Position numbers and translations under genes: made by a program
From: Nitrospirota bacterium
GTDB lineage: Bacteria > Nitrospirota > UBA9217
Direction of reading: 5' to 3'
NCBI GenBank assembly: GCA_963840455.1
Contig: CAWIYV010000011.1
Span: 832,001 to 896,000, forward strand
DNA length: 64,000 bases
Part shown: positions 576-49,000 of the stretch, in pieces
Layout of the letters: every line of letters starts with the position of its first letter
How positions within the stretch are numbered: position 1 is the first letter of the stretch
The notes under the pieces: model-generated
Database searches by the model: none
The model's input: only the letters and a program-made list of their open reading frames with translations
What the model was told of the DNA's origin: nothing

Positions 576-612
576 CCGCTGGTGAAACGGGCGGGGAATT
601 GTTCATGGCTCA

Positions 613-662
613 TTGAAGCTCCCTGCAGCAAGCTACGGGGAATGAGCTCGCTCCTGGATTCA
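613..662 (+). repeat. Repeat family A (REP/REPIN-like), short copy
   Basis: TTGAAGCTCCCTGCAGCAAGCTACGGGGAAT..CTCGCTCCTGGATTCA; related copies at about 3866, 33033, 39487, 41266 and 46105. Confidence 0.85.
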
Positions 663-3169: not shown

Positions 3170-3975
3170 CTTGAATTAAGATACTTGACCCGTCTACGGC
3201 CACGTCCGCTCGCCCGCGCAAATTCTCGGCTCTCCGGCCTCAGACATGCGCGGCGCCCCTTCGGGACGCTTGCCTTTGGCCAAGACGTGGCCCTAAAGTC
3301 TTTACTAGGGCCGCTCCGTGGACGTGCGGTGATTTGGGGTAGGGCAAGGACTTGAGAAGTCCCCATGCGAACATTCCCGGCAGGCGACCGAGTCCGAGGG
3401 TTAAACAATTTAGACTGTCTGAGCCGCAGACGAGTTTCTAAAATGTACTGAGGACGACCGAGCATGCTGCGAGATCAGAAGGTTCGCCAGATGCCTCTGC
3501 TTTTTGTTACCTTTCTTCGGGCACGCAAGAAAGTGACCCAAAGAAGGGCACCCGACGAAAATTCTTCACGGCACGCTCGGTGTCCTCAGTACATTTCGGA
3601 AACTCGCCCTGCGGGCTCAGACATCCGAAATGCTTCACCCTCGGACTTGGTCGCCTGCCTGGAATTTTCGAATGGGAATGCCTCAGCGGCAACGGCCACT
3701 GTCGCTGCTTCTGCCTTACCCAAGCGCCGGGTAGCCCGGCTGCGAAGTCTGTGCGTATGCATGGGCAGACATCCTCAACCCACTTGCAACGGGGGAAGCC
3801 TTTTATTTTTTAGTGTAGCACAACACCGGCTTCATGCCGGGCATGCACCGCGCGGTTTCTGTTGTCGCTCCCTGCAGCATGCTGGAGGGAGGCTCCGAGT
3901 CCTCAAGGAAGATATTGTTCTAATCGCTCGCTGACCCCGCCAAAAGGCTGCGGGTGGCATTCGCTCCTGGATTCA
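3170..3975. repeat. Intergenic mosaic of REP/MITE-like repeat families (D 3170-3345, B 3360-3765, A 3866-3975)
   Basis: The same blocks recur at 36635-38015 and 50060-50655, in both orientations. Confidence 0.8.
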
Positions 3976-4042: not shown

Positions 4043-4432
4043 TTACCTCTTCCCCGGCGTGGAATGTCTTCGGAACCATGCGGCCGCATCCTGAACATCC
4101 CTCTTCTTGAGGGCCATATCCAGGGTAAAGGTCTCAAGTTCCTTCTGCGACGCATTAAGCTCATATCCGTTCAGCATCAGAAAGAGCCCTGCAGCGGAGA
4201 TAGCGGTACGCTTGTTCCCGTCGAGGAAAGGATGGTTGCCGATGAGCGACCCCAGGAGCGCCGCCGCCTTGTGGAACAGATCGCGATACAGGTCCTTTCC
4301 TTCAAAGGTTGCCCGCGGCCGCTCAACGGCCGATCTCAGCAGCCCGACGTCTCGTACGCCGTGCATGCCCCCGGTCTCGGTGACGAGCCGCGCATGGATA
4401 AAGAGCACCTGTTCCGCCGTCAGGTACCTCAC
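4043..4432 (-). CDS. doc: Doc/Fic family toxin
   Basis: Fic motif HPFLDGNKRTA, 129 aa, overlaps the upstream antitoxin. Confidence 0.92.
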   Translation of the reverse strand: MRYLTAEQVLFIHARLVTETGGMHGVRDVGLLRSAVERPRATFEGKDLYRDLFHKAAALLGSLIGNHPFLDGNKRTAISAAGLFLMLNGYELNASQKELETFTLDMALKKRDVQDAAAWFRRHSTPGKR

Positions 4433-4677
4433 TTCTTCGCGAGCTCCTTCAGCGCGGGGCGGTACTTCTCAATGAACTCGTTCACTTGACCGGCGAACGC
4501 CTTGTCGATCCCCGGCACCTTCCGCTTCTTTCTGACCGGAGCGATCACGATCCTTTCCTGTTCTTCATCCAGCTCGACATTCACGTCCGAGCCGGCGGTA
4601 AGATCGAGCTTGTTCAGGATCTCGACCGGGATCGACACACCTTTGCTGTTCCCTATGGCAACGACCTTTCTGTGCAT
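4429..4677 (-). CDS. AbrB/MazE-family antitoxin
   Basis: RKVVAIGNSKGVSIP AbrB signature; ATG at 4677 after a GGAGG RBS. Confidence 0.88.
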   Translation of the reverse strand: MHRKVVAIGNSKGVSIPVEILNKLDLTAGSDVNVELDEEQERIVIAPVRKKRKVPGIDKAFAGQVNEFIEKYRPALKELAKK

Positions 4678-4919
4678 TGTCGCCTCCTTCAGTGTTATAA
4701 CGACATTATAACATTGCCCGGAGCGGTGTAAAGGGGATATTGCGTGCTGGAGATCAGGACCTTGATCAGCGGTGATCATCAACAACTACGGAATCTGGCC
4801 TGACCCGAAGATGTTAGTACAACGTCCCCTACGGTTCTTTCCCCTCCTTTTCGGTGCCTTACGGGACCTCCGTCCCCGCTTGCAGGCTGGCCGGCTCGCA
4901 GGCTGATATGCTTGTTGCA

Positions 4920-5295: not shown

Positions 5296-5720
5296 ATTAT
5301 GGCGAGTATCTCACGATGGTAAATTCCCTGACGATTGCTGCACAGAGCGTAACCTGCCCTTTTCATGTCAAAAAACGGTATTCTCAGGCCTGTGGCTGGG
5401 CGCTTTTTATGATCATACGCTAAGTATTTCATTTAGTTGTCTTGGTCCGACCCTGATATTCGCATCCTAATTTCAAAGTCAGACTCCAGAGGTTCCTGCT
5501 TTTATGGATGGCTTTCGAGCGCCGCAAATGCAGGGTCAAGAGTGAAGTCGGGAGAGCCGCAATCTCACATGACAACCTTATTCTTAGGTGACCAGTATAT
5601 GACCCTGCAACAAAAGAGACCTGTATAACCATATAAAGGGCACCTCCAGAGCATACCAGAACGTTTAAGCTCTGATATGCTCTTGGGAGAAGAGACCAAT
5701 CTCATCCCAGGAGGTGCTGT

Positions 5721-6278
5721 ATGCGATTGTACACAGGAATTGATCTGCATTCAAGCAACAGTTATCTGGCGATCATCGATGAAACTGGTAAACGGGTGTT
5801 CAAGAGGAAGCTCCCCAATGATTCGGAACAAATTCTTTCCGCCCTCGCACCCTACATTGATGCAATTACCGGCATCGTCATCGAGTCCACGTACAACTGG
5901 TACTGGTTGGTGGATGCACTCATGGCGGAAGGATACAAGGTTCATCTCGCCAACCCTACGGAGATTAAACAATATAAGGGACTCAAGTATTCAGACGATC
6001 AGCATGATGCCTTCTGGCTGGCCGAGATGCTGCGGCTCGGAATCCTGCCCGAAGGCTACATTTACCCGAAAGAAGATAGACCGATCCGCGACTTGTTACG
6101 CAAACAAGAAGAGCGGCAACAAGTACCTGGCGTGGGCCGGGCATTTTACCAGCGAAAGATGCAAAAGACCAACGCAATGATAGCGCATCAAGCCCTGTCA
6201 CACAAACTGGCACGAGCAGCGTATTACATCATGAGAGATGGAGTGTCCTTTATGCCGGAGAAGCTCTTTACGCAATGA
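5721..6278 (+). pseudogene. IS110 transposase with two internal deletions
   Basis: N-terminal GIDLH/IEST DEDD domain intact; 155 aa shorter than 28192-29214. Confidence 0.88.
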
Positions 6279-6660
6279 AAGTTCACAAGCTGGCTGGGAC
6301 GGTGAACCTGCCTTAGGGTTGGTAAAACCACGAGACCTGATTGGTAATCCGTCCCACCCTTTTATAGCGTTATCAGCATCTTTACTGCCCATACCGCGAG
6401 CCATCTTGGGGCTGGTTAACAACCATAAGACTTGTACGAACTCCTGGACACGGCATGGAACCGAAGATTTTCTGGTCCGCCAAAAGGCGGAAAGGGTCAT
6501 GGATAAAAGAGCTCCACCAATGACCTTAATCCCGATGGGTGACTGGTGCAGTGAAGACTGACGCCGAAACCGAATGAAACTGCGGCAATGGTGAAGATGA
6601 AGATAACGACAAGGCTAGGCGAGAAACGTTTCGTTTCTCGCCACAAGATAGCTGTTTTCG
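6279..6660 (+). ncRNA. Candidate bridge/seekRNA in the IS 3' non-coding region
   Basis: Stem GGGACGG/CCGTCCC encloses TAGGGT and GAGACCTG, which match the two halves of the target; ATGGGTG at 6535 matches the IS right end. Boundaries approximate. Confidence 0.6.
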
Positions 6661-6829
6661 CTTGACGGTGCCCTTTAAATGGGTGACCCTAGGAGGTTCC
6701 AGACAGCTATAAGATCGTACCGGAACGGCGCAAAAAAAAAGACCTGCGTGAGCAGATCGTTCAAAGAGTGAAACTATGGCACAGGATGCAGAGAAGAACA
6801 GGATCGGGTCGAACAGCAGAGAGCTGGTC

Positions 6830-12022: not shown

Positions 12023-12271
12023 TTACTTCTTCGCGAGCTCCTTCAGCGCGGGGCGGTACTTCTCAATGAACTCGTTCACCTGACCGGCGAACGCCTTGTC
12101 GATCCCCGGCACCTTCCGCTTCTTTCTGACCGGGGCGATCACGATCCTTTCCTGTTCTTCATCCAGCTCGACATTCACGTCTGAGCCGGCGGCAAGATCG
12201 AGCTTGTTCAGGATCTCGACCGGGATCAACACCCCTTTGCTGTTCCCTATGGCAACGACCTTTCTGCGCAT
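12023..12271 (-). CDS. AbrB/MazE-family antitoxin, orphan copy of 4429-4677
   Basis: Differs from the first copy at 3 residues; no toxin gene follows. Confidence 0.85.
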   Translation of the reverse strand: MRRKVVAIGNSKGVLIPVEILNKLDLAAGSDVNVELDEEQERIVIAPVRKKRKVPGIDKAFAGQVNEFIEKYRPALKELAKK

Positions 12272-12537
12272 TGCCGCCTCCTTCGTGTTATAACGAAATC
12301 ATAACATTGCCCGGAGCGGTGCAAAGGGGATTGTCGCGGGCCGGAGATCAGGACCCCGATCAGCGGTGACTCTTCAACGATCGCGGCGGGGTCAGGTCTT
12401 GAAACGACAGTTTCTTCAAGACATGGCCCCCACCAGCCCTCACTTCCGCGTCGCCGTCCAGCCCTCGCCGCGTTTAGCGATTTGGGGCAAGGACTTGGCT
12501 GCCGAATTCGTCTTCCGGCCGCAACCAGTTCGCGGCC

Positions 12538-15386: not shown

Positions 15387-15613
15387 GGCGTATTGTAACT
15401 ACAGAAGGCGCAGATGTATACATTATTTTGGCAGGACGGCGACGTGGGTAAAAACTATCCTAAGGAGAATGGCGAAATACAAGACGTGACCCTATAAGGC
15501 TCTATTCAGTGCAACAAAAGAGACCTGATCCTAAGTGTTCGCAATTTGTGACTAGTACAAATAACTACAGATTCATGTCTGACCCCAAACACCTACCACA
15601 ATGCTCCTAGTTG

Positions 15614-27674: not shown

Positions 27675-27809
27675 GTATGCTCCTTGACAAGGAAACCTTA
27701 TATTGGTCAGGACCGTTTGGGGTCAGGCCTGAAAAGATGAAATGTTGCCCGCCCCCTCGTTTTACGCTTCGGCCCCCATAGGGTCACCCATTTAAAGGGC
27801 ACCGTCAAG

Positions 27810-28191
27810 CGAAAACAGCTATCTTGTGGCGAGAAACGAAACGTTTCTCGCCTAGCCTTGTCGTTATCTTCATCTTCACCATTGCCGCAGTTTCATTCGG
27901 TTTCGGCGTCAGTCTTCACTGCACCAGTCACCCATCGGGATTAAGGTCATTGGTGGAGCTCTTTTATCCATGACCCTTTCCGCCTTTTGGCGGACCAGAA
28001 AATCTTCGGTTCCATGCCGTGTCCAGGAGTTCGTACAAGTCTTATGGTTGTTAACCAGCCCCAAGATGGCTCGCGGTATGGGCAGTAAAGATGCTGATAA
28101 CGCTATAAAAGGGTGGGACGGATTACCAATCAGGTCTCGTGGTTTTACCAACCCTAAGGCAGGTTCACCGTCCCAGCCAGCTTGTGAACTT
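27810..28191 (-). ncRNA. Candidate bridge/seekRNA of the full IS copy
   Basis: Reverse complement of 6279-6660. Confidence 0.6.
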
Positions 28192-29214
28192 TCATTGCGT
28201 AAAGAGCTTCTCCGGCATAAAGGACACTCCATCTCTCATGATGTAATACGCTGCTCGTGCCAGTTTGTGTGACAGGGCTTGATGCGCTATCATTGCGTTG
28301 GTCTTTTGCATCTTTCGCTGGTAAAATGCCCGGGCCTCCGGATAATGGCGCCGGGCAATCTCGGCAGCTTCGGAAAAGGCCCACGCCAGGTACTTGTTGC
28401 CGCTCTTCTTGTTTCCTTTGCCCTTTTTCTTATCGTTGCTGATCCATTTTGTTGAAACCTTTCGGCAGTAGGAGCAGTAGTTGCCGACTTGCGCAAAACG
28501 GCTGATGGGGCCGGTTTCTAGCATGATCGTAAGTCCCAACGTTTTCCCCACACCTTGCATGGTGAGGAGCTTCGTGTATTGTTCGCGCAGCTCCATTCTT
28601 TCTTCGACGACGTTTTCAACGGCTTTGATCTGGCGCGTCAGAAAATCTATGGACTCCTTGCTGATCTTGCCAGCCAATGCCAGGTCCTCGTTCTGTTCAA
28701 GAAACGGCGCAACGCGATCTGTATTCAATGCCTTGACGTCATTCGTCTTGATCCGAAACCCATTGTTGCGGCAAATAATGTTCTGCAAGCTGATGATGAG
28801 CGAAGTCCTGAGCTTTACGAGATGACTTCTTTTGCGTAACAAGTCGCGGATCGGTCTATCTTCTTTCGGGTAAATGTAGCCTTCGGGCAGGATTCCGAGC
28901 CGCAGCATCTCGGCCAGCCAGAAGGCATCATGCTGATCGTCTGAATACTTGAGTCCCTTATATTGTTTAATCTCCGTAGGGTTGGCGAGATGAACCTTGT
29001 ATCCTTCCGCCATGAGTGCATCCACCAACCAGTACCAGTTGTACGTGGACTCGATGACGATGCCGGTAATTGCATCAATGTAGGGTGCGAGGGCGGAAAG
29101 AATTTGTTCCGAATCATTGGGGAGCTTCCTCTTGAACACCCGTTTACCAGTTTCATCGATGATCGCCAGATAACTGTTGCTTGAATGCAGATCAATTCCT
29201 GTGTACAATCGCAT
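28192..29214 (-). CDS. IS110 family transposase (DEDD recombinase)
   Basis: GIDLH, IEST, SDDQHDA, MQGVG, GNKYL and KLARAAY motifs; 340 aa. Confidence 0.95.
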   Translation of the reverse strand: MRLYTGIDLHSSNSYLAIIDETGKRVFKRKLPNDSEQILSALAPYIDAITGIVIESTYNWYWLVDALMAEGYKVHLANPTEIKQYKGLKYSDDQHDAFWLAEMLRLGILPEGYIYPKEDRPIRDLLRKRSHLVKLRTSLIISLQNIICRNNGFRIKTNDVKALNTDRVAPFLEQNEDLALAGKISKESIDFLTRQIKAVENVVEERMELREQYTKLLTMQGVGKTLGLTIMLETGPISRFAQVGNYCSYCRKVSTKWISNDKKKGKGNKKSGNKYLAWAFSEAAEIARRHYPEARAFYQRKMQKTNAMIAHQALSHKLARAAYYIMRDGVSFMPEKLFTQ

Positions 29215-29313
29215 ACAGCACCTCCTGGGATGAGATTGGTCTCTTCTCCCAAGAGCATATCAGAGCTTAAACGTTCTGGTATGCTCTGGAGGTGCCCTTT
29301 ATATGGTTATACA

Positions 29314-29765
29314 GGTCTCTTTTGTTGCATTTCCCTCTTCCCCGCACCTTCGGACGCGGTCCCCTTCCCCTGCGAACCTCTCGCGGTCGGGTCGATACTG
29401 TCTCCCTTTATTGATCCATCTACCCCGCACCCCGTTTCACTCCTTCAGTATGCCTCATCAACCAAAGCAGCCGCTCATTTGAATGCGACGGCCGGATGGA
29501 GCTGGGCTGTTTCGAAGGTGATCAGTCCCGCCTGGACGAGCGGGTCCTGGTTCACGACCTTGTCGGCTTCCTCCCTCGTCTCCGCCCTGACGACGATCAT
29601 ACCGCCATGGTCGCCCCACTTGCCGGCCTGCACGAGGACGCCCGCTGCGAGCTGCTGCCTGGCCCATTCCCGGTGCAAGGGGATCGCCTTGCTGATCTGC
29701 GCCCGGTCCGCGTTGGATTTGAACTTGTTGATCGACATGAAGTACATGCTTGTATCCCTCTTGGG
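29314..29765. repeat. Block of about 450 bp duplicated at 32466-32917
   Basis: Near-identical sequence including the YciI gene and its downstream region. Confidence 0.9.
29475..29747 (-). CDS. yciI: YciI family protein
   Basis: HREW, AGKW..GGMIVV and DPLVQAGL motifs. Confidence 0.85.
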   Translation of the reverse strand: MYFMSINKFKSNADRAQISKAIPLHREWARQQLAAGVLVQAGKWGDHGGMIVVRAETREEADKVVNQDPLVQAGLITFETAQLHPAVAFK

Positions 29766-29992
29766 ACCCCTCAGGATCAGGTCTCTTTTGTTGCATTTCC
29801 TTCTTGCCGGGAGCCCGCGAGGGTCACGATACTTCCGACACGGTGACAGGGAGACGCGGAGACACGGGGATAAGCAGAAGTCGTCCGAATCTCAGAGAAC
29901 CCGTTACGCCGCCGCCTTGCGCGCTCTGTACTTCAGGGTCATGGGGCACGGGCCAGCGGTTCGATCCAGTTCTGCTGCGACCGGCAGCCTGG

Positions 29993-31708: not shown

Positions 31709-32482
31709 CTATTTAAGCACATCGACCTGAACATTCCCATAGGGATTTTCATCGGCATCGAGCCTATATCCCATGCAGGACGGCATGGGCGTTGCCCCGT
31801 CATTGGCAAATATGCCCCACCGCGCGAAAAAGGCGTCGACAACGGCTCCGGTGAAAACAGCCGGGGCCAGGAAAAGATCTGCATTGCTGGGCTTGACGTG
31901 GAAGTGGATATGGCTTCCGATCCCCGCGTTCGGAGGCAGGTACATGTACGCAATGATGTCGCCTTTCGTGACGCGCTGCCCCCGGGAGACAAGGATGAAC
32001 TGCTTGTAGAAATCCGTCGACGGTTCGGGGATCATCGGTTCGATGCTATAGGAGAAGCGATAGACCGTTGAGCCTTCCCGGGCATAGGCGATATCGATGC
32101 CGTACCGGTCATTCGACCCGACCGGAAAGTTATAATCGATCCTGTCGATGTAGCCGTCCGCCACGGCGTAGATGGCGGGATAATTGGACGGCGCCGTTCC
32201 GCCCGTTGGCCAGACGTTCGAGGTATTGTCCCAGTGAACGTGCGCCCCCTGATGGGGTGTGTTCGACCGCCGTCCCTTGAACGGATGCCCGGCGTCGACA
32301 TACTGGACGTCTACAAGGAACCGGTCCGAGCGGTTCGCCTGGACCTGCGCGCGGGTGGGCAGGCCCGGGTAGGGATCGACCGCGCCGCCGCCTGATCCGC
32401 CCCCTCCGCATCCCGGGGACAGGACGAAGGTAAGGGTAATGGCGATGAGGAACCCTATGGGGTCAGGTCTCTTTTGTTGCAT
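31709..32482 (-). CDS. M23 peptidase-like putative lipoprotein (start uncertain)
   Basis: Lipobox-like SPG-C, IYAVADG, GQRVTKGDIIA and HIHF. Confidence 0.65.
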   Translation of the reverse strand: MQQKRPDPIGFLIAITLTFVLSPGCGGGGSGGGAVDPYPGLPTRAQVQANRSDRFLVDVQYVDAGHPFKGRRSNTPHQGAHVHWDNTSNVWPTGGTAPSNYPAIYAVADGYIDRIDYNFPVGSNDRYGIDIAYAREGSTVYRFSYSIEPMIPEPSTDFYKQFILVSRGQRVTKGDIIAYMYLPPNAGIGSHIHFHVKPSNADLFLAPAVFTGAVVDAFFARWGIFANDGATPMPSCMGYRLDADENPYGNVQVDVLK

Positions 32483-32626
32483 TTCCCTCTTCCCCGCACC
32501 TTCGGACGCGGTCCCCTCCCCCTACGAACCTCTCGGGGTCCGGTCGATGCTGGCTCCCATTATTGATCCATGTACCCCGCACCCTGTTTCTTTCCTTCAG
32601 TGTGCCTCATCAACCAGAGCAGCCGC

Positions 32627-32899
32627 TCATGTGAATGCGACGGCCGGATGGAGCTGGGCTGTTTCGAAGGTGATCAGTCCCGCCTGGACGAGCGGGTCCT
32701 GGTTCACGACCTTGTCGGCTTCCTCCCTGGTCTCCGCCCTGACGACGATCATACCGCCATGGTCGCCCCACTTGCCGGCCTGCACGAGGACGCCCGCTGC
32801 GAGCTGCTGCCTGGCCCATTCCCGGTGCAAGGTGATCGCCTTGCTGATCTGCGCCCGGTCCGCGTTGGCTTTGAACTTGTTGATCGACATGAAGTACAT
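32627..32899 (-). CDS. yciI: YciI family protein, second copy
   Basis: Differs from 29475-29747 at 3 residues. Confidence 0.85.
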   Translation of the reverse strand: MYFMSINKFKANADRAQISKAITLHREWARQQLAAGVLVQAGKWGDHGGMIVVRAETREEADKVVNQDPLVQAGLITFETAQLHPAVAFT

Positions 32900-35782: not shown

Positions 35783-36634
35783 ATGTTAAAGCGTATCCTG
35801 GGAATTCTGCTGCTGGTCGTGTGCGTAAGCCCGCTGGCTCCGGTCCTGGCGGCCAGCGATCCCAACGATGCCGAGGGCAGCAAGGACCCGGCCCTGTTCA
35901 GCCGCATGCCCGGGTTTCACATCTATAACTACAAGGAGATTGATTTCGATCGCTTCGAATTTGAGGTCGGACCCCGCAAGACGCAGGCGATCGAGGGCCG
36001 GCATGTTTATGTCGATTACTATGCCAACGAGGGCATCAAAGTTCCCAGCGGCCTGCAGATCACCCGGAATTACATCAATGCCGCCAAGGCTGTGGGAGGA
36101 ACATCGGTCTATGAGTTCGAGGACGGCGGCGTTCAGTATGTCACGCTGAAGGTCGTCAAGAACAATGTCGAGGCCTGGGCCAGGGTCGAAGGGTCCGGGA
36201 ACGGGACGTACAAGGTCCACATCATCGAAAAGCAGCTTATGAAGCAGGAGGTGGTGGCCAATGCCGAAAGCCTGGCGGGCAGCATCCGGGAGACCGGCAA
36301 GGCCGCTGTCTATGGCATCTATTTCGACACCGGCAAGGCCGAGATCAAGCCGGAGTCGGAGGCGGCCCTGGCTGAGATCGCCAAGCTGCTCAAGGCCGAT
36401 CCCAAGCTGAAGCTCTATGTGGTCGGCCACACCGACAACGTCGGCCTCTTTGGCTCCAATATCAAGCTTTCCGATGACCGGGCAGCTGCGGTCGTCAAGG
36501 CCCTGGTCGGCAAATACGGCATCGTCTCCTCCCGCCTTACGCCCTTCGGCGACGGCCCCACGGCGCCGGTGGCCTCCAACAAGAGCGAGGAAGGACGGGC
36601 CAAGAACCGCCGGGTGGAGCTGGTGGCACAGTAA
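35783..36634 (+). CDS. OmpA family protein with signal peptide
   Basis: IYFDTGKA, VGHTDNVG, LSDDRA and NRRVEL. Confidence 0.9.
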   Translation: MLKRILGILLLVVCVSPLAPVLAASDPNDAEGSKDPALFSRMPGFHIYNYKEIDFDRFEFEVGPRKTQAIEGRHVYVDYYANEGIKVPSGLQITRNYINAAKAVGGTSVYEFEDGGVQYVTLKVVKNNVEAWARVEGSGNGTYKVHIIEKQLMKQEVVANAESLAGSIRETGKAAVYGIYFDTGKAEIKPESEAALAEIAKLLKADPKLKLYVVGHTDNVGLFGSNIKLSDDRAAAVVKALVGKYGIVSSRLTPFGDGPTAPVASNKSEEGRAKNRRVELVAQ

Positions 36635-38015
36635 GAAGGGCACCCCACTGAAAACACCTTTACTACATGCCCGGTCGTCCTCAGTACATTTCGGAAACTT
36701 GCCCTGTGGGCTTCGGACATCCGAAATGCTTTACCCTCGGACTCGGTCGCCTGCCTAAATTTAAGCTCCCAGGTGCAAACGGCAGTGGAGCTTCGATCCT
36801 CAAGGTTGTGTATTTATTCTAATCGCTTTCTATCCCCGGATACAGCTGCGGGGATGCGCTCGCTCCTGGATTTTCGTATGGGACTGCCTCAGCGGCAACG
36901 GCCACTGTCGCTGCTTCTGCCTTACCCAAGCGCCGGGCAGCCCGGCTGCGATGACTGTGCGTATGCATGGAACGATCACAGAACACAGGACTACCGCATG
37001 GCTAAAGCAGACACGGCCGAACTCGGTCTTTTACGGGCGAGGGGAAGTGCTGCGATCGCCACAAAATATCGTTTGCTTAAACAATCCCCACATGCTTAGC
37101 ACAGCAAGCCACCGGGTTGCCCAATAAAACCAAGGAGCCTGAACATCTGCGATGACCCGGATCTTTACGTCATGATGCCTCTGCCTTTTGTCCCCTTTCT
37201 TGCGTGCCCAAGAAAGTGACCCAAAGAAGGGCACCCGACGAAAATTCTTCACGGCATGCTCGGTCGTCCTCAGTACATTTTCGGAAACTTGCCCTACGGG
37301 CTTCGGACATCCGAAATGTTTTACCCTCGTCCTCTGTCGCCTGCCTAAATTTTCGTATGGGACTGCTCTAGGGGCAGACTCACGTCTTTCCCCTTACCCC
37401 GCACTTTCCCGGAGTGGCCCTACGCCCTGCACTCGTGATGCCGCTCGTAAACGCTGGGTGCAGGTGAAATTCTTGGGCACCCGTCTTGGCCTAAGGTAGC
37501 GTCCCCCTGGGGGCGAACGCGCATGTCCGAGGCCGCAGGCTGAGTTTGCGCGGGCGAGCGGACGTGGCCTTAGACGGGTCAAGAAATGCATTGTCGCCCT
37601 CTGCATCACACTGCGGGGGGCTCCGATCCTCAAGGAAGTTGCAATTCTAACCGCTCGCTATGCGCTCGCTCCTGGATTCAGGACACGAAGGGGTGGTGCA
37701 AAAAAGAGCTCAAGATACAAGCTCTTTGTCACCTTTCTTGCGTGCCCAAGAAAGTGACCCAAAGAAGGGCACCCCACTGAAAACACCTTTGCTACAGGCT
37801 CGGTCGTCCTCGGTACATTTCGGAAACTCGCCCTGTGGGCTCAGACATCCGAAATGTTTTACCCTCGTCCTCTGTCGCCTGCCTAAATTTAAGCTCCCAG
37901 GTGCAAACGGCAGTGGAGCTTCGATCCTCAAGGTTGTGTATTTATTCTAATCGTTTTCTATCCCCGGATACAGCCGCGGGGATGCGCTCGCTCCTGGATT
38001 TTCGTATGGGACTGC
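36635..38015. repeat. 1.4-kb mosaic of REP/MITE-like repeats, including a direct repeat of about 250 bp (36635-36890 / 37765-38015)
   Basis: Same blocks as 3170-3975 and 50060-50655. Confidence 0.85.
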
Positions 38016-38043
38016 TCAGCCAACTGCTAACTGCTTTTGGATC

Positions 38044-39426: not shown

Positions 39427-39486
39427 TTAGGGAACCCTTAGGGTCAGGTCAAAAGAAACCAGCGAACAAGCCCGGCTCTCTCTCAA

Positions 39487-39603
39487 TTGAAGCTCCCTGC
39501 AGCAAGCTGCAGGGAATCTTCGATCCTCAAGGTAGTACTATTTATTCTCATCGCTCGCTAACCCCGCAGCAAGCTGCGGGGAATGCGCTCGCTCCTGGAT
39601 TCA
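39487..39603 (+). repeat. Repeat family A, full 117-bp double-palindrome copy
   Basis: CCCTGCAGCAAGCTGCAGGG and CCCCGCAGCAAGCTGCGGGG hairpins. Confidence 0.88.
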
Positions 39604-41260: not shown

Positions 41261-41563
41261 GGAAGTTGAAGCTCCTTGCAACAAGCTGCAGGGAATCTTC
41301 GGTCCTCAAGGTAATAATAGATCATTCTAATCGCTCGCTAACCCCCTGCACTCGCGGTTCCACTCGTAAACGCTGGGGGCAAGACCCCGCAGCTAGCTAC
41401 GGGGAATGGGCTCGCTCCTGGATTCAAGTAAGAATTAAGAAATTATCTCCAGGTCTTCTCCCTATCAAGCGGGTGATACAAGCTTCGAAGTCGGGCATGT
41501 TTCTGCCACCGGTTCACAGCTCCGTGCAGTCATGCAGGGCTGGTATTTGCGTCACCGTGGGGG

Positions 41564-45924: not shown

Positions 45925-46232
45925 GGACGATCATCCCTTCGATAAAGAGCTGTGTGGTGACTTTGATGCTTTTCCGAATAGCAACGTGCGGCCACTGTTT
46001 CTAACTTAGAACCTGAGGGTCAGGTCGATATCACACATTCATAACTCAAGATTCAAAATTCAATATAAATCAACTAACAAGCTGGCAAGCGCGAGAACAG
46101 CGCATTGAAGCTCCCCGCAGCAAGCTACGGGGAATTCGCTCGCTCCTGGATTCAAAGTTCAATGTTCAAGGTTCACTAAATCTGCTAAAAGGAGACCCCC
46201 TGAGGATCAGGTCTTTCTCTGTGCCTCAGCCA

Positions 46233-47640: not shown

Positions 47641-48678
47641 CTATGGCGTGAACAGCCATGCAGCTTTGCATTGAGGACACCGTACATTCAATTGCCCGCG
47701 GTTGGTCGGGACGTTCAGCTTCTGTGAGCAGCTCTGGCAAGTGATGATGGTTGTTGTCTTCAATTCTCCGGCATCGTTCAGCTCAGGCTGATAGAGCCGC
47801 CGCATGCCGCACTCAGGGCAGGTTACGGTTATCACCCCCTGGTCGATCGGCACCTTCAGCTGCTTGTTGCATTCTAAACAAACGATGATCGTCGTATGCT
47901 CCGAAGGAACGGCCTCTGAAGCCCCGGGGGATTCAATGCTCTGCACTTCCTGCACTTCCTCGGGCAGCTCCTCTCTGGCAGTCTCTTCCAACGATGTTTG
48001 CTCCGGTTCCAGCGCTTGTAACGGTTCTGGAACCTGTACCGGCTCCGGAGCCTGTATTGGTTCTGGAGCTTTTACCGACTCTGGGGCCTGTGCCGGTTTC
48101 GGAGCCTGTACCGGTTCTGGCGCTTGTACCGGTTCTGGAGCCTGTGCCGGTTTCGGAGCCTGTACCGGTTCTGGAACTTTTACCAGCTCGTGTGCTTTCT
48201 TCAGGTCAGATACAGCAACCCTCTCATAGGATGCAACGCTGATGGTCTGGCGAGCACCTGCGGGGATGGTCTTTGCCTTTGGTCCCAGTTCAGGCATCTT
48301 GCCGGTCCGGATGAACGCATCGCCGAACGCGGCCTGCAGCAGTTCTGACGTCCGCTTGCTGCTGTACAGGATAATGCCTTTCCCGGCTGCGAAATCGTAC
48401 GCTTCCGGTGAGCAATCGGTCGTGGTGATCAGATATCCTTGCGTGCAACGGAGCCGGATCATTGCTCCATAGAATTGCTGAAGAACCGGCCGGCCGATGA
48501 ACGCCCCGTGGTATTTCTTGCAGAGAATGCCGATCCGCGCGCCGTTCTTGCCGAGCAGTACACCGTCAGCGCCGGCGGCACTGCTCTGTTCCACCGCGTA
48601 ACCCTGCCGCGCAAACGCCGCGAGCGTCAGCCGCAGGAAATCTGCGTGGGAAATTGAATCGAAGATAGTTGTTGCCAT
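47641..48678 (-). CDS. Mrr-like restriction endonuclease domain protein with PEPVQA repeats and two zinc ribbons
   Basis: GADG..ILCKKY..IGRPVLQQF..GYLITT; four CxxC pairs at the C-terminus. Confidence 0.72.
   Translation of the reverse strand: MATTIFDSISHADFLRLTLAAFARQGYAVEQSSAAGADGVLLGKNGARIGILCKKYHGAFIGRPVLQQFYGAMIRLRCTQGYLITTTDCSPEAYDFAAGKGIILYSSKRTSELLQAAFGDAFIRTGKMPELGPKAKTIPAGARQTISVASYERVAVSDLKKAHELVKVPEPVQAPKPAQAPEPVQAPEPVQAPKPAQAPESVKAPEPIQAPEPVQVPEPLQALEPEQTSLEETAREELPEEVQEVQSIESPGASEAVPSEHTTIIVCLECNKQLKVPIDQGVITVTCPECGMRRLYQPELNDAGELKTTTIITCQSCSQKLNVPTNRGQLNVRCPQCKAAWLFTP
48005..48180. repeat. 18-bp coding tandem repeat (about 9-10 units)
   Basis: GGTTCTGGAGCCTGTACC-like units encoding APEPVQ. 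Confidence 0.9.
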
Positions 48679-49000
48679 CGCTGTGAACCCTGGAGGCAGG
48701 ACCGCTTGGGGTCCGACTGAGATATGGAGATTCTCTATGCCCGCTGGGCCCCGCTCCGGAGGAGCGAGGATTGCGCGGGCACGGCACGTTCGCGGGCTCT
48801 GTCTTCGAGGCCTTGGACCATAACAGCTGTGCGATGAAGAACCGCTCGTAACAGGGCCCTTGATATGGTTTGAGGATAGTACAAAGAACTGAGAATTGCA
48901 AGAGGTTGCGGCTGTACGTGATACTGCACGGCCCTTCAAGGCAGCCACTTACTTTTGTCCGTTGCGGTTTTCCGGGAGATTGTGTAAGATTGCCGTAACC

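Follow-up and report, generated by a model that had tools for sequence, protein, structure and literature searches.

RNA-guided recombinases of the IS110/IS1111 type are under development as genome-writing tools, and their IS1111 branch is less understood. Within this branch, the seekRNA elements ISEc11, ISPa11 and ISKpn4/ISPst6 (Siddiquee et al. 2024, PMC11187229) resemble the element that we analyzed here, which is present in two copies in a 64-kb stretch of DNA (the window). Shared features are subterminal inverted repeats, probably with short asymmetric extensions, a long downstream non-coding region, a DEDD transposase about 340 aa long, a first stem-loop of about 70 to 80 nt with the top-strand match 5' of the bottom-strand match, site- and orientation-specific insertion, and natural reprogramming among relatives. 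For ISEc11, ISPa11 and ISKpn4, the report describes the same guide order and an RNA encoded downstream of the transposase gene (PMC11187229). The published seekRNAs are short (82 to 96 nt) or long (148 to 172 nt), whereas the structured region of our element spans about 265 nt (6292-6555); the role of the long IS1111 RNA is stated as open (PMC11187229). Our element further differs from those of the report by a second target-like pair and a match to its own right end, which the supplementary long-RNA folds of that paper may already show, by Ser-Asn in place of Ser/Thr-Gly and by the use of a different repeat as the target, and some of these differences may already have been described there as well.

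The bridge RNA of IS621 and the IS110 group (Durrant et al. 2024, PMC11208160; PMC13626964) offers likely parallels in its internal loops reading both target strands, its separate part reading the element's own end, its handshake guides, dinucleotides whose pairing is confined to the recombined product, and the use of a junction promoter. A relationship to the solved transposases of IS621 and ISCro4 can be detected through weak matches to the copy A protein. The IS621-type RNA is encoded at the 5' end and has two simple internal loops, one for the target and one for the donor, which each read both strands, whereas the candidate RNA region of our element lies at the 3' end and has the reversed guide order. 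A third comparison concerns the attC- and REP-targeting elements (ISPa11, IS621 and ISPpu9), which also use a repeated, partly palindromic intergenic sequence at gene boundaries as a safe place to land.

A full-length element and a deleted derivative

An initial annotation of the window had placed an IS1111-type element at 5606-6695. The type was correct, but the element at this position is not a full one. Copy B (5624-6685, plus strand) is a deleted derivative of copy A (27785-29311, minus strand), a full-length element of 1527 bp, including the right-hand TG, whose end motifs could be located. Copy B has lost 419 and 46 nt in two internal deletions but has kept both ends and the entire 3' non-coding region, and outside these deletions the copies differ nowhere (0 mismatches in 1064 aligned nt). 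A genome-wide search identified copy A as the sole full copy in the 4.03-Mb genome, which holds four element fragments besides copies A and B; the right flanks of element remnants in the genome read ACCCTA, ACCCCT and ACCTCT. Copies A and B share orientation and site, and their flanks agree for 14 nt to the left and 6 nt to the right but diverge further out. Because the flanks differ outside the shared site, the two copies are separate insertions and not the product of a segmental duplication.

The copy A transposase gene (28192-29214, minus strand) encodes a DEDD-type protein of 340 aa. It has the N-terminal DEDD/RuvC-like domain and the C-terminal Transposase_20 domain of the IS110 family, matching PF01548 (DEDD_Tnp_IS110) with an E value of 4e-19 and PF02371 (Transposase_20) with an E value of 2e-11, and it scores 173.7 bits against the NCBIfam model NF033542 ("IS110 family RNA-guided transposase"; cut-off, 140). 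The nearest named relatives are transposases of the ISGsu4 family, a label found on annotated plasmid records, with about 48% identity over 99% of the protein. An identity of less than 50% means that ours is a different element, for which an ISfinder name may exist. Copy B retains a truncated frame of 185 aa (5721-6278, plus strand), in which only the N-terminal DEDD domain is detected and the coiled coil and most of the C-terminal domain are absent.

The layout of the element is that of the IS1111 group, with 407 nt of non-coding DNA downstream of the transposase gene versus 97 nt upstream. The subterminal inverted repeats of 14 bp, ATATAAAGGGCACC and GGTGCCCTTTAAAT, match at 13/14 positions (11 perfect), in keeping with the perfect or nearly perfect repeats of about 11 to 13 bp in that group. 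In copy B, the left end (5624-5644, plus strand) consists of the extension TATAACC (5624-5630) and the left repeat (5631-5644), and the right end (6662-6685, plus strand) of a -35-like TTGACG (6662-6667), the right repeat (6667-6680), the extension GGG and TG. The left extension is 7 bp long, against 6 bp in most relatives, and the right one 3 bp. The IS1111 group has 7 (or 6) bp and 3 bp, respectively; in our element a TG stands at both junctions, and the count changes with its assignment. Together with the Pfam and NCBIfam matches, the repeats and the long downstream region bear out the IS1111-type assignment: the element is clearly an IS1111-type (IS110 family) insertion sequence and a further example of a known mechanism. 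A conserved hairpin, GGCGAGAAACG/CGTTTCTCGCC (6618-6642, plus strand), separates the RNA domain from the right end; its stem is retained despite base changes in relatives, and the terminator scan did not call it as a terminator.

The target is a repeat at gene boundaries

Both copies had been described as joined to their host DNA at CAACAAAAGAGACC-TG on the left and TG-ACCCTA on the right, and we find exactly this arrangement. The left half CAACAAAAGAGACC with the TG core lies at 29312-29327 (minus strand) in copy A and at 5608-5623 (plus strand) in copy B, and the right half ACCCTA at 27779-27784 (minus strand) and 6686-6691 (plus strand), respectively. There are five exact occurrences of CAACAAAAGAGACC in the window and six at up to 2 mismatches, compared with 0.43 expected, a number that none of 100 shuffles reached. 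The segment GAGACCTG occurs eight times in the window (2.2 expected), five times at sites, twice in the copies of the non-coding region and once elsewhere.

Three further sites had been presented as empty versions of the target. Each does contain the left half and TG, but the right halves are not ACCCTA: they read ATCCTA at 15512-15533 (plus strand), ATCCTG at 29772-29793 (minus strand) and ACCCCA at 32458-32479 (minus strand). The left flank of the last site is 95% identical to the copy A left flank over 300 nt (family D2). The target belongs to a dispersed repeat that occurs at gene boundaries and has about 16 clear copies. A 93%-identical element in two other genomes occupies a AAGACCTG site in 5/5 copies, with the right flank ACCCTA in three of the five; a repeat model made from this genome recovered 1 intact site only among 62 relatives' loci.

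The initial annotation proposed an RNA-guided recombinase aimed at an "array site". The guide part of this proposal is upheld by the covariation described below, whereas an array site in the attC or REP sense is not established. The IS1111-attC group targets one end of an integron attC. Inverted-repeat scans around our sites revealed no consistent attC-like paired arms and no attC-like long imperfect palindrome; the best match to the integron integrase model TIGR02249, located on contig C7 and not on this contig, reached 135.6 bits (cut-off, 265); and a genome search with the tyrosine recombinase model PF00589 returned two Xer-like genes plus fragments, none on this contig. Because of these three results, we do not call the target attC. 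A REP/RAYT search returned two Y1-transposase-like stretches with internal stops on other contigs, which speak neither for nor against a REP nature of the repeat, and a literature search on integrons and attC in Nitrospirota found nothing relevant.

Is the element still mobile in this genome? The guide system could be real while the element is immobile here, with copy B dead and copy A a resident relic, owing to its Ser-Asn motif or to the lack of a promoter. The genome has one intact and one deleted copy plus the four fragments only, and the three near-cognate sites in the window are empty, as this reading would have it; neither the single intact copy nor the vacant sites give a sign of recent movement. 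The promoter and terminator scan found nothing on the transposase strand and no sigma-70-like promoter inside the linear element. In addition, IS1111 transposases are reported with Ser/Thr-Gly (PMC11187229), and at the position aligned to this part of the C-terminal motif G-L-x-P-x4-S/T-G our protein has S-N. However, the identity of the copies over 1064 nt means that the latest transposition and both deletions happened recently, and members of the family normally rely on a junction promoter or on read-through (PMC11187229; PMC13626964). The S-N is moreover common to the clade, in the context Y-C-R-K-V-x-x-x-W-x-S-N in 15/16 aligned members (the 16th, L065, is frameshifted), with T-N in one relative, and the clade includes multi-copy elements, with 7 copies in one genome. 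Since Ser-Asn is conserved clade-wide, including in multi-copy elements, it is compatible with activity. We regard immobility as possible but the less probable state, and the element may be active at present.

Guide segments in stem-loop 1 covary with the host flanks

A conserved stem-loop 1 starts just past the transposase stop codon. In copy B it occupies 6292-6359 (plus strand), with an outer stem formed by 6292-6302 and 6349-6359 and an internal loop that holds the guides; the sequence of the corresponding seekRNA-like stem-loop in copy A (28111-28178, minus strand) is identical. As had been noticed, GGGACGG (6296-6302) and CCGTCCC (6349-6355) enclose TAGGGT (6314-6319), the hairpin TGGTAAAACCA (6320-6330) and GAGACCTG (6332-6339). 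The top-strand guide T1, TTAGGGT (6313-6319, plus strand), contains the reverse complement of the right half ACCCTA and covaries with the right flanks. The bottom-strand guide B1 (6332-6341, plus strand) consists of GAGACCTG, in the sense of the left half and its TG, and a subsequent AT; it covaries with the left flanks. In copy A the two guides lie at 28151-28157 and 28131-28138 (minus strand), respectively, on opposite sides of the internal loop. [quoted passage not shown] The published matches overlap in the target (PMC11187229), whereas T1 of the window's type ends at the flank base beside TG. At the left handshake position of the window's type, the bases after B1 (AT) differ from the start of the left end (TA), but they match in most relatives.

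Guide/target covariation across homologs had been put forward as a check of the guides. We compiled 42 loci from other genomes in which both flanks were readable, representing 24 guide types, and in these loci the T1 and B1 positions track the host flanks. The median suffix shared by B1 and its own left flank is 7 nt, compared with 2 nt, the invariant TG, for the flanks of other types. When flanks were permuted among 17 classes, a test that ignores the kinship of the elements, none of 10,000 permutations reached the observed sum for B1 (53; mean, 7.2) or for T1 (90; mean, 64.6). The guides AAAAGTG, AGAAATG and AGAAGTG are each paired with identical flanks, and TCTATG and TCAATG guides go with CATAGA and CATTGA flanks, respectively. 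Among the matches listed for independent metagenome contigs, B1 equals the left flank over at least 6 nt in 16/18 loci, T1 shares at least 5 nt with the right flank in 22/36, and 44/122 right flanks begin with ACCCTA. Matching of the right half is loose, as the T1 match is short (4 to 6 nt) in many loci, and there are one-sided failures, namely L033 and L035 (left, 3 nt), L032 (left, 0 nt) and L039 (right, 2 nt).

Could the transposase protein alone read the site, with the 3' region being no more than untranslated structure that has a part in mRNA stability, in termination or in antisense control, and with incidental matches? The subterminal inverted repeats are likely protein-binding sites, the hairpin at 6618-6642 and the highly structured region could serve regulation, and an RNA-protein complex is only predicted. 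However, T1 and B1 change with the host flanks over the 17 classes while the protein remains 60 to 95% identical, and because the host flanks lie outside the element and yet correlate with these segments, the reading mechanism must sit in T1 and B1. An RNA-guided mechanism has also been demonstrated experimentally for members of the family (PMC11187229). In the IS1111 group, the RNA is purified along with the transposase, and movement depends on it. We consider reading by the protein alone very improbable.

Our preferred reading, drawn from sequence comparison, is that the DEDD transposase is aimed by a predicted RNA from the 407-nt downstream region, and we put its probability at roughly 0.85. 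The structure of the region is conserved. In the structure alignment, 97.5% of cells are paired, compared with 33 to 43% when the partners are slid, and eight pairs have changed on both sides, which was reached by 3/500 shuffles. At two stem pairs of stem-loop 1, G-C and A-U are interchanged in 6 to 7 of the 15 sequences. The fold z-score is -4.0, and many G-U pairs fit only the transposase-sense strand. A search of the whole window against Rfam gave no family at the gathering score, and matches within the region at E values up to 10 were at chance level. No sequencing run searched contained half or more of the words of the element. In four RNA libraries, contigs cover the non-coding region and gene parts of relatives with 88 to 95% likeness; these are relatives' contigs and no indicator of transcription or of RNA ends here, and gaps in their coverage mean nothing.

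A multi-loop domain with a second target-like pair and a right-end match

Downstream of stem-loop 1 lies a multi-loop domain, closed by TTTACTG/CAGTGAA, at 6381-6555 (plus strand) in copy B and at 27915-28089 (minus strand) in copy A. It contains a second target-like pair (6404-6434, plus strand) consisting of T2 TCTTGGGGC (6404-6412), a hairpin (6413-6425) and B2 TAAGACTTG (6426-6434), which in copy A lies at 28058-28066 and 28036-28044. B2 tracks the left flanks (0/5000 permutations), and T2 tracks the right flanks weakly (18/5000 permutations). This second pair is weaker than T1/B1.

The same domain contains ATGGGTG (6535-6541, plus strand), which, as the initial annotation stated, is identical to the right end of the element, its last 7 nt including TG (6679-6685). 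The match continues with AC (to 6543), the two bases with which the right flank begins; in copy A, the right-end match and the two flank bases lie at 27927-27935. Among 47 loci, the segment equals the right end in 46, including one G-to-A change present in both, and the 2-nt extension equals the flank in 46, across six different dinucleotides. The right-end segment also agrees at 56/62 junctions among the matches listed for metagenome contigs. A donor match within a multi-loop has been noted for many IS1111 members (PMC11208160; PMC13626964), and Extended Data Fig. 10c and Supplementary Table 5 of PMC11208160 may already contain second loops or donor matches of such members. In contrast to the IS621-type bridge RNA, the flank-matching extension of our element is on the bottom-strand-type guide, and we found a right-end half donor guide only, with no segment complementary to the left end at a conserved position. 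Three candidates were rejected. GTTATCA (approximately 6368-6374) is complementary to TG and ATAA in several types, though not in the distant ones; CCTTAAT near 6524 resembles the inverted repeat, yet it is invariant where the repeat changes; and CACCC, which follows stem-loop 1, could pair with the right end but ignores the G-to-A change and belongs to a stem.

The internal matches could also be captured target DNA, functionless relics of an old nested insertion or end duplication, as 6520-6543 resembles a degenerate right-end copy and the relative L027 has a tandem or nested right end, but a relic would not update at each target change, the two halves face each other across a conserved internal loop in opposite senses, and the surrounding stems stay paired through compensatory changes, which makes this the least credible of the alternatives.

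How might the parts of an RNA-guided element work together? A speculative view, which we hold to be rather unlikely, is that the RNA of this clade is a three-module guide, unlike the one-loop seekRNA and the two-loop bridge RNA. It would combine a strict target loop (stem-loop 1 with T1 and B1), a relaxed second loop and a right-end guide with a flank-reading extension. The U- and G-rich guides of the second loop (UUGGGG and AGACUUG) could pair with the occupied site via G-T and U-G wobbles and would pair perfectly with AGACT-TG-…CCCCAA variants of the repeat. Such a loop might broaden the target range, store guides for swapping or hold the flanks during excision. If this view is true, the flank-reading 2-nt extension would explain why IS1111 excision needs donor flanks that match the RNA.

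Predicted mechanism and life cycle

In the mechanism that we propose, stem-loop 1 would be the counterpart of the published short seekRNA or target-binding loop, and the RNA, once produced, would be bound by the transposase. Of the two sides of its internal loop, the 5' one (UUAGGGU) would base-pair with the right half (ACCCTA) on the top strand, and the 3' one (GAGACCUG) would do so on the bottom strand, with the left half (GAGACC) and the TG of strand exchange. In the multi-loop, AUGGGUG-AC would pair with the bottom strand of the right end and the first two flank bases. As this segment covers both end and flank, it matches the right junction after insertion or before excision, in the fashion of a handshake guide. 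The clade provides a natural series of close relatives with at least 17 guide/target pairs, and hence evidence on the programmable positions, and it offers two testable leads: the second target-like loop and, on the right-end guide, the extension that would read the flank.

Copy A would be the autonomous element. In an end-joined circle, TTGACG of the right end would come to lie 18 nt from TATAAC of the left end, presumably creating a junction promoter. Copy B lacks the catalytic C-terminal half of the transposase but has kept the ends and the RNA region, and it would be movable only with the copy A enzyme. The finding accounts for two interruptions of the gene-boundary repeat, by one autonomous and one dependent copy. 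A deleted derivative that keeps its RNA region is also reminiscent of ISPpu9, for which extra copies of the small-RNA gene ssr9 are described (PMC12288879).

The IS1111-type element and its insertion sites

The comparison of sequences supports the reading of this IS1111-type element as RNA-guided and confirms the observation made in the initial annotation. The mechanism itself has been known since 2024; hence, the element adds to a kind already described. What may be new is a flank-reading extension, a second guide pair, and a Ser-Asn motif in the transposase.

The genome (4.03 Mb in 14 contigs) has two copies of the element, both in the window (C11:832001-896000). Copy A, delimited by its end motifs and sequence, is a full 1527-bp element at 27785-29311 on the minus strand, with a 340-aa transposase reading frame (28192-29214, minus). 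The protein matches both Pfam DEDD_Tnp_IS110 and Transposase_20 and passes the cut-off of the NCBIfam model "IS110 family RNA-guided transposase." The solved ISCro4 and IS621 transposases are weak sequence relatives, and the closest annotated relatives (~48-51% identity) come from plasmid records, some with the ISGsu4 family label. At the position reported as Ser/Thr-Gly in IS1111 transposases, clade comparison shows Ser-Asn (Thr-Asn in one relative) at about residues 250-262 (window 28430-28470, minus), within a conserved Y-C-R-K-V…W-x-S-N stretch followed by K-G-K-G-N-K-K. Copy B (5624-6685, plus), the copy named in the initial annotation, aligns to copy A over 1064 nt with no mismatch but lacks two stretches, of 419 and 46 nt; its frame is open for 185 aa, and the N-terminal domain is the only one detected. 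The genome has no further copies of the transposase protein, and four fragments of related elements lie outside the window.

Both copies read CAACAAAAGAGACC-TG-TATAACC-ATATAAAGGGCACC … GGTGCCCTTTAAAT-GGG-TG-ACCCTA, which bears out the claim that they occupy one site with TG at each junction, and their 14-bp subterminal repeats are identical at 13 of 14 positions. The left flanks of the two copies agree for 14 nt and the right flanks for 6 nt before they diverge; hence, the copies represent two separate insertions. Three empty sites had also been proposed. The left half and the TG are indeed present and unoccupied in them, but the right halves read ATCCTA, ATCCTG, and ACCCCA. The left flank of the empty site at 32479 is common with that of copy A over 300 nt (95% identical), and together the two show the left junction before and after insertion. 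The duplicated stretch (29312-29611 and 32464-32763) comprises the repeat and a 90-aa YCII-domain gene; the element lies beside one copy, and the second copy is unoccupied.

Two arrangements of related elements were seen in passing. One of the four fragments, a 384-bp remnant (L004, 77% identical), lies 18 kb upstream of the window (G000 C11:813557-813940) in the site CAACAGTAAAGACC-TG … TG-ACCCCT; it has retained its two ends and the distal RNA region but neither the transposase gene nor the first stem-loop. At locus L027 (about 3.5 kb, from a Nitrospirota assembly), one element's right end runs straight into another, incomplete right end, beyond which comes RNA-region sequence from inside a further copy; the arrangement is tandem or nested.

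Proposed guide segments follow the host flanks

The first stem-loop starts 14 nt past the transposase stop codon and has a ten-pair stem (6292-6302 with 6349-6359) around an internal loop. The loop carries the proposed guides T1 (TTAGGGT, 6313-6319, plus) on its 5' side and B1 (GAGACCTG, 6332-6339, plus) on its 3' side, with the small hairpin TGGTAAAACCA between them. T1 is the reverse complement of the right target half and B1 equals the left half plus TG, so the target halves do lie in a 3' non-coding stem-loop on opposite strands, as first suggested. Siddiquee et al. describe the same guide order, in an RNA encoded downstream of the transposase gene, for three IS1111 members (PMC11187229).

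Scanning a single genome from each species yielded 62 loci with transposase relatives (39-94% identity), mostly in Nitrospirota assemblies and otherwise in assemblies labelled Syntrophales or delta-, gamma-, or alphaproteobacteria. Together with copy A, 63 sequences were examined; loci cut by contig ends, fragments, and loci without the anchor motifs were set aside, and in 42, representing 24 guide types, the two ends, the flanks on either side, and the stem-loop could all be read. In these 42, B1 shares a suffix of median 7 nt with its own left flank, versus 2 nt (the invariant TG) with the flanks of other types. When flanks were permuted among 17 classes, each represented by a single locus, the observed match was reached in 0 of 10,000 permutations for T1 and likewise for B1; the test ignores the kinship of the elements, and the flanks are host DNA whose distal parts vary between loci. 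Clearest are closely related elements in which the guides AAAAGTG, AGAAATG, and AGAAGTG sit in flanks of just these sequences. Matches are poor on the left at L033 and L035 (3 nt each), L029 (4 nt), and L032 (0 nt) and on the right at L039 (2 nt).

Metagenome contigs scanned for the element's right end gave at least 122 junctions. Among the matches listed, the right flank starts with ACCCTA in 44 of 122, 16 of the 18 loci whose left flank could be read have a B1 match to it of ≥6 nt, and 22 of the 36 whose stem-loop could be read have ≥5 nt of T1 in common with the right flank; where TCAATG stands instead of TCTATG, the element occupies a CATTGA rather than a CATAGA site in two of three listed cases. 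Guide/target covariation across homologs, named in the initial annotation as a check, is hence found in the genome set, and the metagenome agrees.

Predicted fold of the RNA region and further guide-like segments

A consensus fold from an alignment of 15 types recovers the first stem-loop together with a bigger multi-loop, which TTTACTG/CAGTGAA closes. With the inner helices read as we propose, pairing reaches 97.5% of cells, versus 33-43% with the partners slid. Changes on both sides are seen in eight pairs, a count that 3 of 500 shuffles attain, and two pairs of the first stem alternate between G-C and A-U in 6 to 7 of 15 sequences. G-U pairs are frequent, and these are compatible only with the strand in the sense of the transposase gene. 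Folding the single sequence gives a z-score of -4.0.

Within the multi-loop, a second unit (6404-6434) is built like the first: GAGCCA, T2, TGG…CCA, B2. B2 tracks the left flanks (0 of 5000 permutations) and T2 the right flanks weakly (18 of 5000), with poorer matching than in the first pair. In the window element, the exact match with the occupied sites is 2 nt for B2 (AAGACTTG) and 3 nt for T2 (CTTGGGGC). Allowing U-G and G-T wobbles, the pair could bind most of the site, and exact matches occur in variants of the repeat, e.g., AAAGACTTGACCC on contig C4.

ATGGGTG at 6535-6541 equals the element's last 7 nt, as had been claimed. A G-to-A change in the right end of relatives is mirrored in this segment (agreement in 46 of 47 loci), and in 46 of 47 loci the two bases that follow it are those that open the right flank, with six kinds of dinucleotide (AC, TC, CA, GC, CT, and TA); the metagenome figure is 56 of 62 among the matches listed. 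Hence, what the segment matches is the right end joined to its flank rather than the junction of a circle. In this it resembles the handshake guides described for IS621, which pair better once strands are exchanged (PMC13626964); here the extension is on a bottom-strand-type guide. IS1111 donors are reported to need target flanks for excision (PMC11187229), and we infer that a flank-matching extension would fit this need. In many IS1111 members, donor-binding bases lie within a multi-loop, according to Durrant et al. (PMC11208160). A guide for the element's left end was looked for and not found.

A scan of the linear element found no promoter-like site on the transposase strand. In a circle, TTGACG (6662-6667) would stand 18 nt upstream of TATAAC (5624-5629), and TTGAC is kept at that right-end position in relatives; junction promoters are reported in the family (PMC11187229). 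Contigs of four sediment RNA libraries cover the region in relatives, which is no proof for the present element.

The target repeat and its surroundings

The target repeat is roughly 30 nt long, with a consensus near GTCAAC-GGT-AAAGA-NN-TGACCC. A profile search of the genome found 16 copies at E <0.001, and the window has 7 of these in addition to the two occupied sites; copies cluster on C4, C9, and C11. Between 29700 and 47250, about a dozen copies share one orientation on the minus strand and separate unrelated minus-strand genes (YCII, M23-like protein, PilZ, short-chain dehydrogenase, AI-2E transporter, Mrr-like nuclease, and toxin-antitoxin pairs), an arrangement that looks like a cassette array. 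However, no attC-like arms were found around the sites, no integron integrase above cut-off in the genome, and no tyrosine recombinase on the window's contig, and we give the repeat no family name.

Away from the repeat clusters, the integron-integrase model gives a split sub-threshold match (G000 C7:125148-126316), whose N-terminal part scores 135.6 bits and is followed some 700 nt on by a short C-terminal stretch; the match may come from a degenerate integrase. The repeat also occurs in close inverted pairs (GGGTCAAATCTTTA … TAAAGATTTGACCC, 10 to 25 nt apart) at C11:812860-812920, C10:125956-126030, and C9:279530-279595, which are reminiscent of paired REP units or of a very small inverted-repeat element. 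Another repeat family, about 55 nt long, is present at window 608-662, 39482-39603, 41261-41426, and 46100-46154 and has a GC-rich hairpin (CCCCGCAGCAAGCTGCGGGG) with GCTCGCTCCTGGATTCA after it, and six further families (D5, D6, D9, D12, D16, and D20; 50-175 nt) are common to 3504-3764 and 36633-38025. Nine 18-nt tandem units (48005-48202) lie in a 435-aa frame (47641-48948, minus) with an Mrr-type nuclease domain. Finally, a 260-nt duplicate (4431-4690 and 12025-12284, 97% identity) carries a small antitoxin-like gene, which lies beside a frame at 4043-4432 that appears Doc/Fic-like on inspection of its translation alone.
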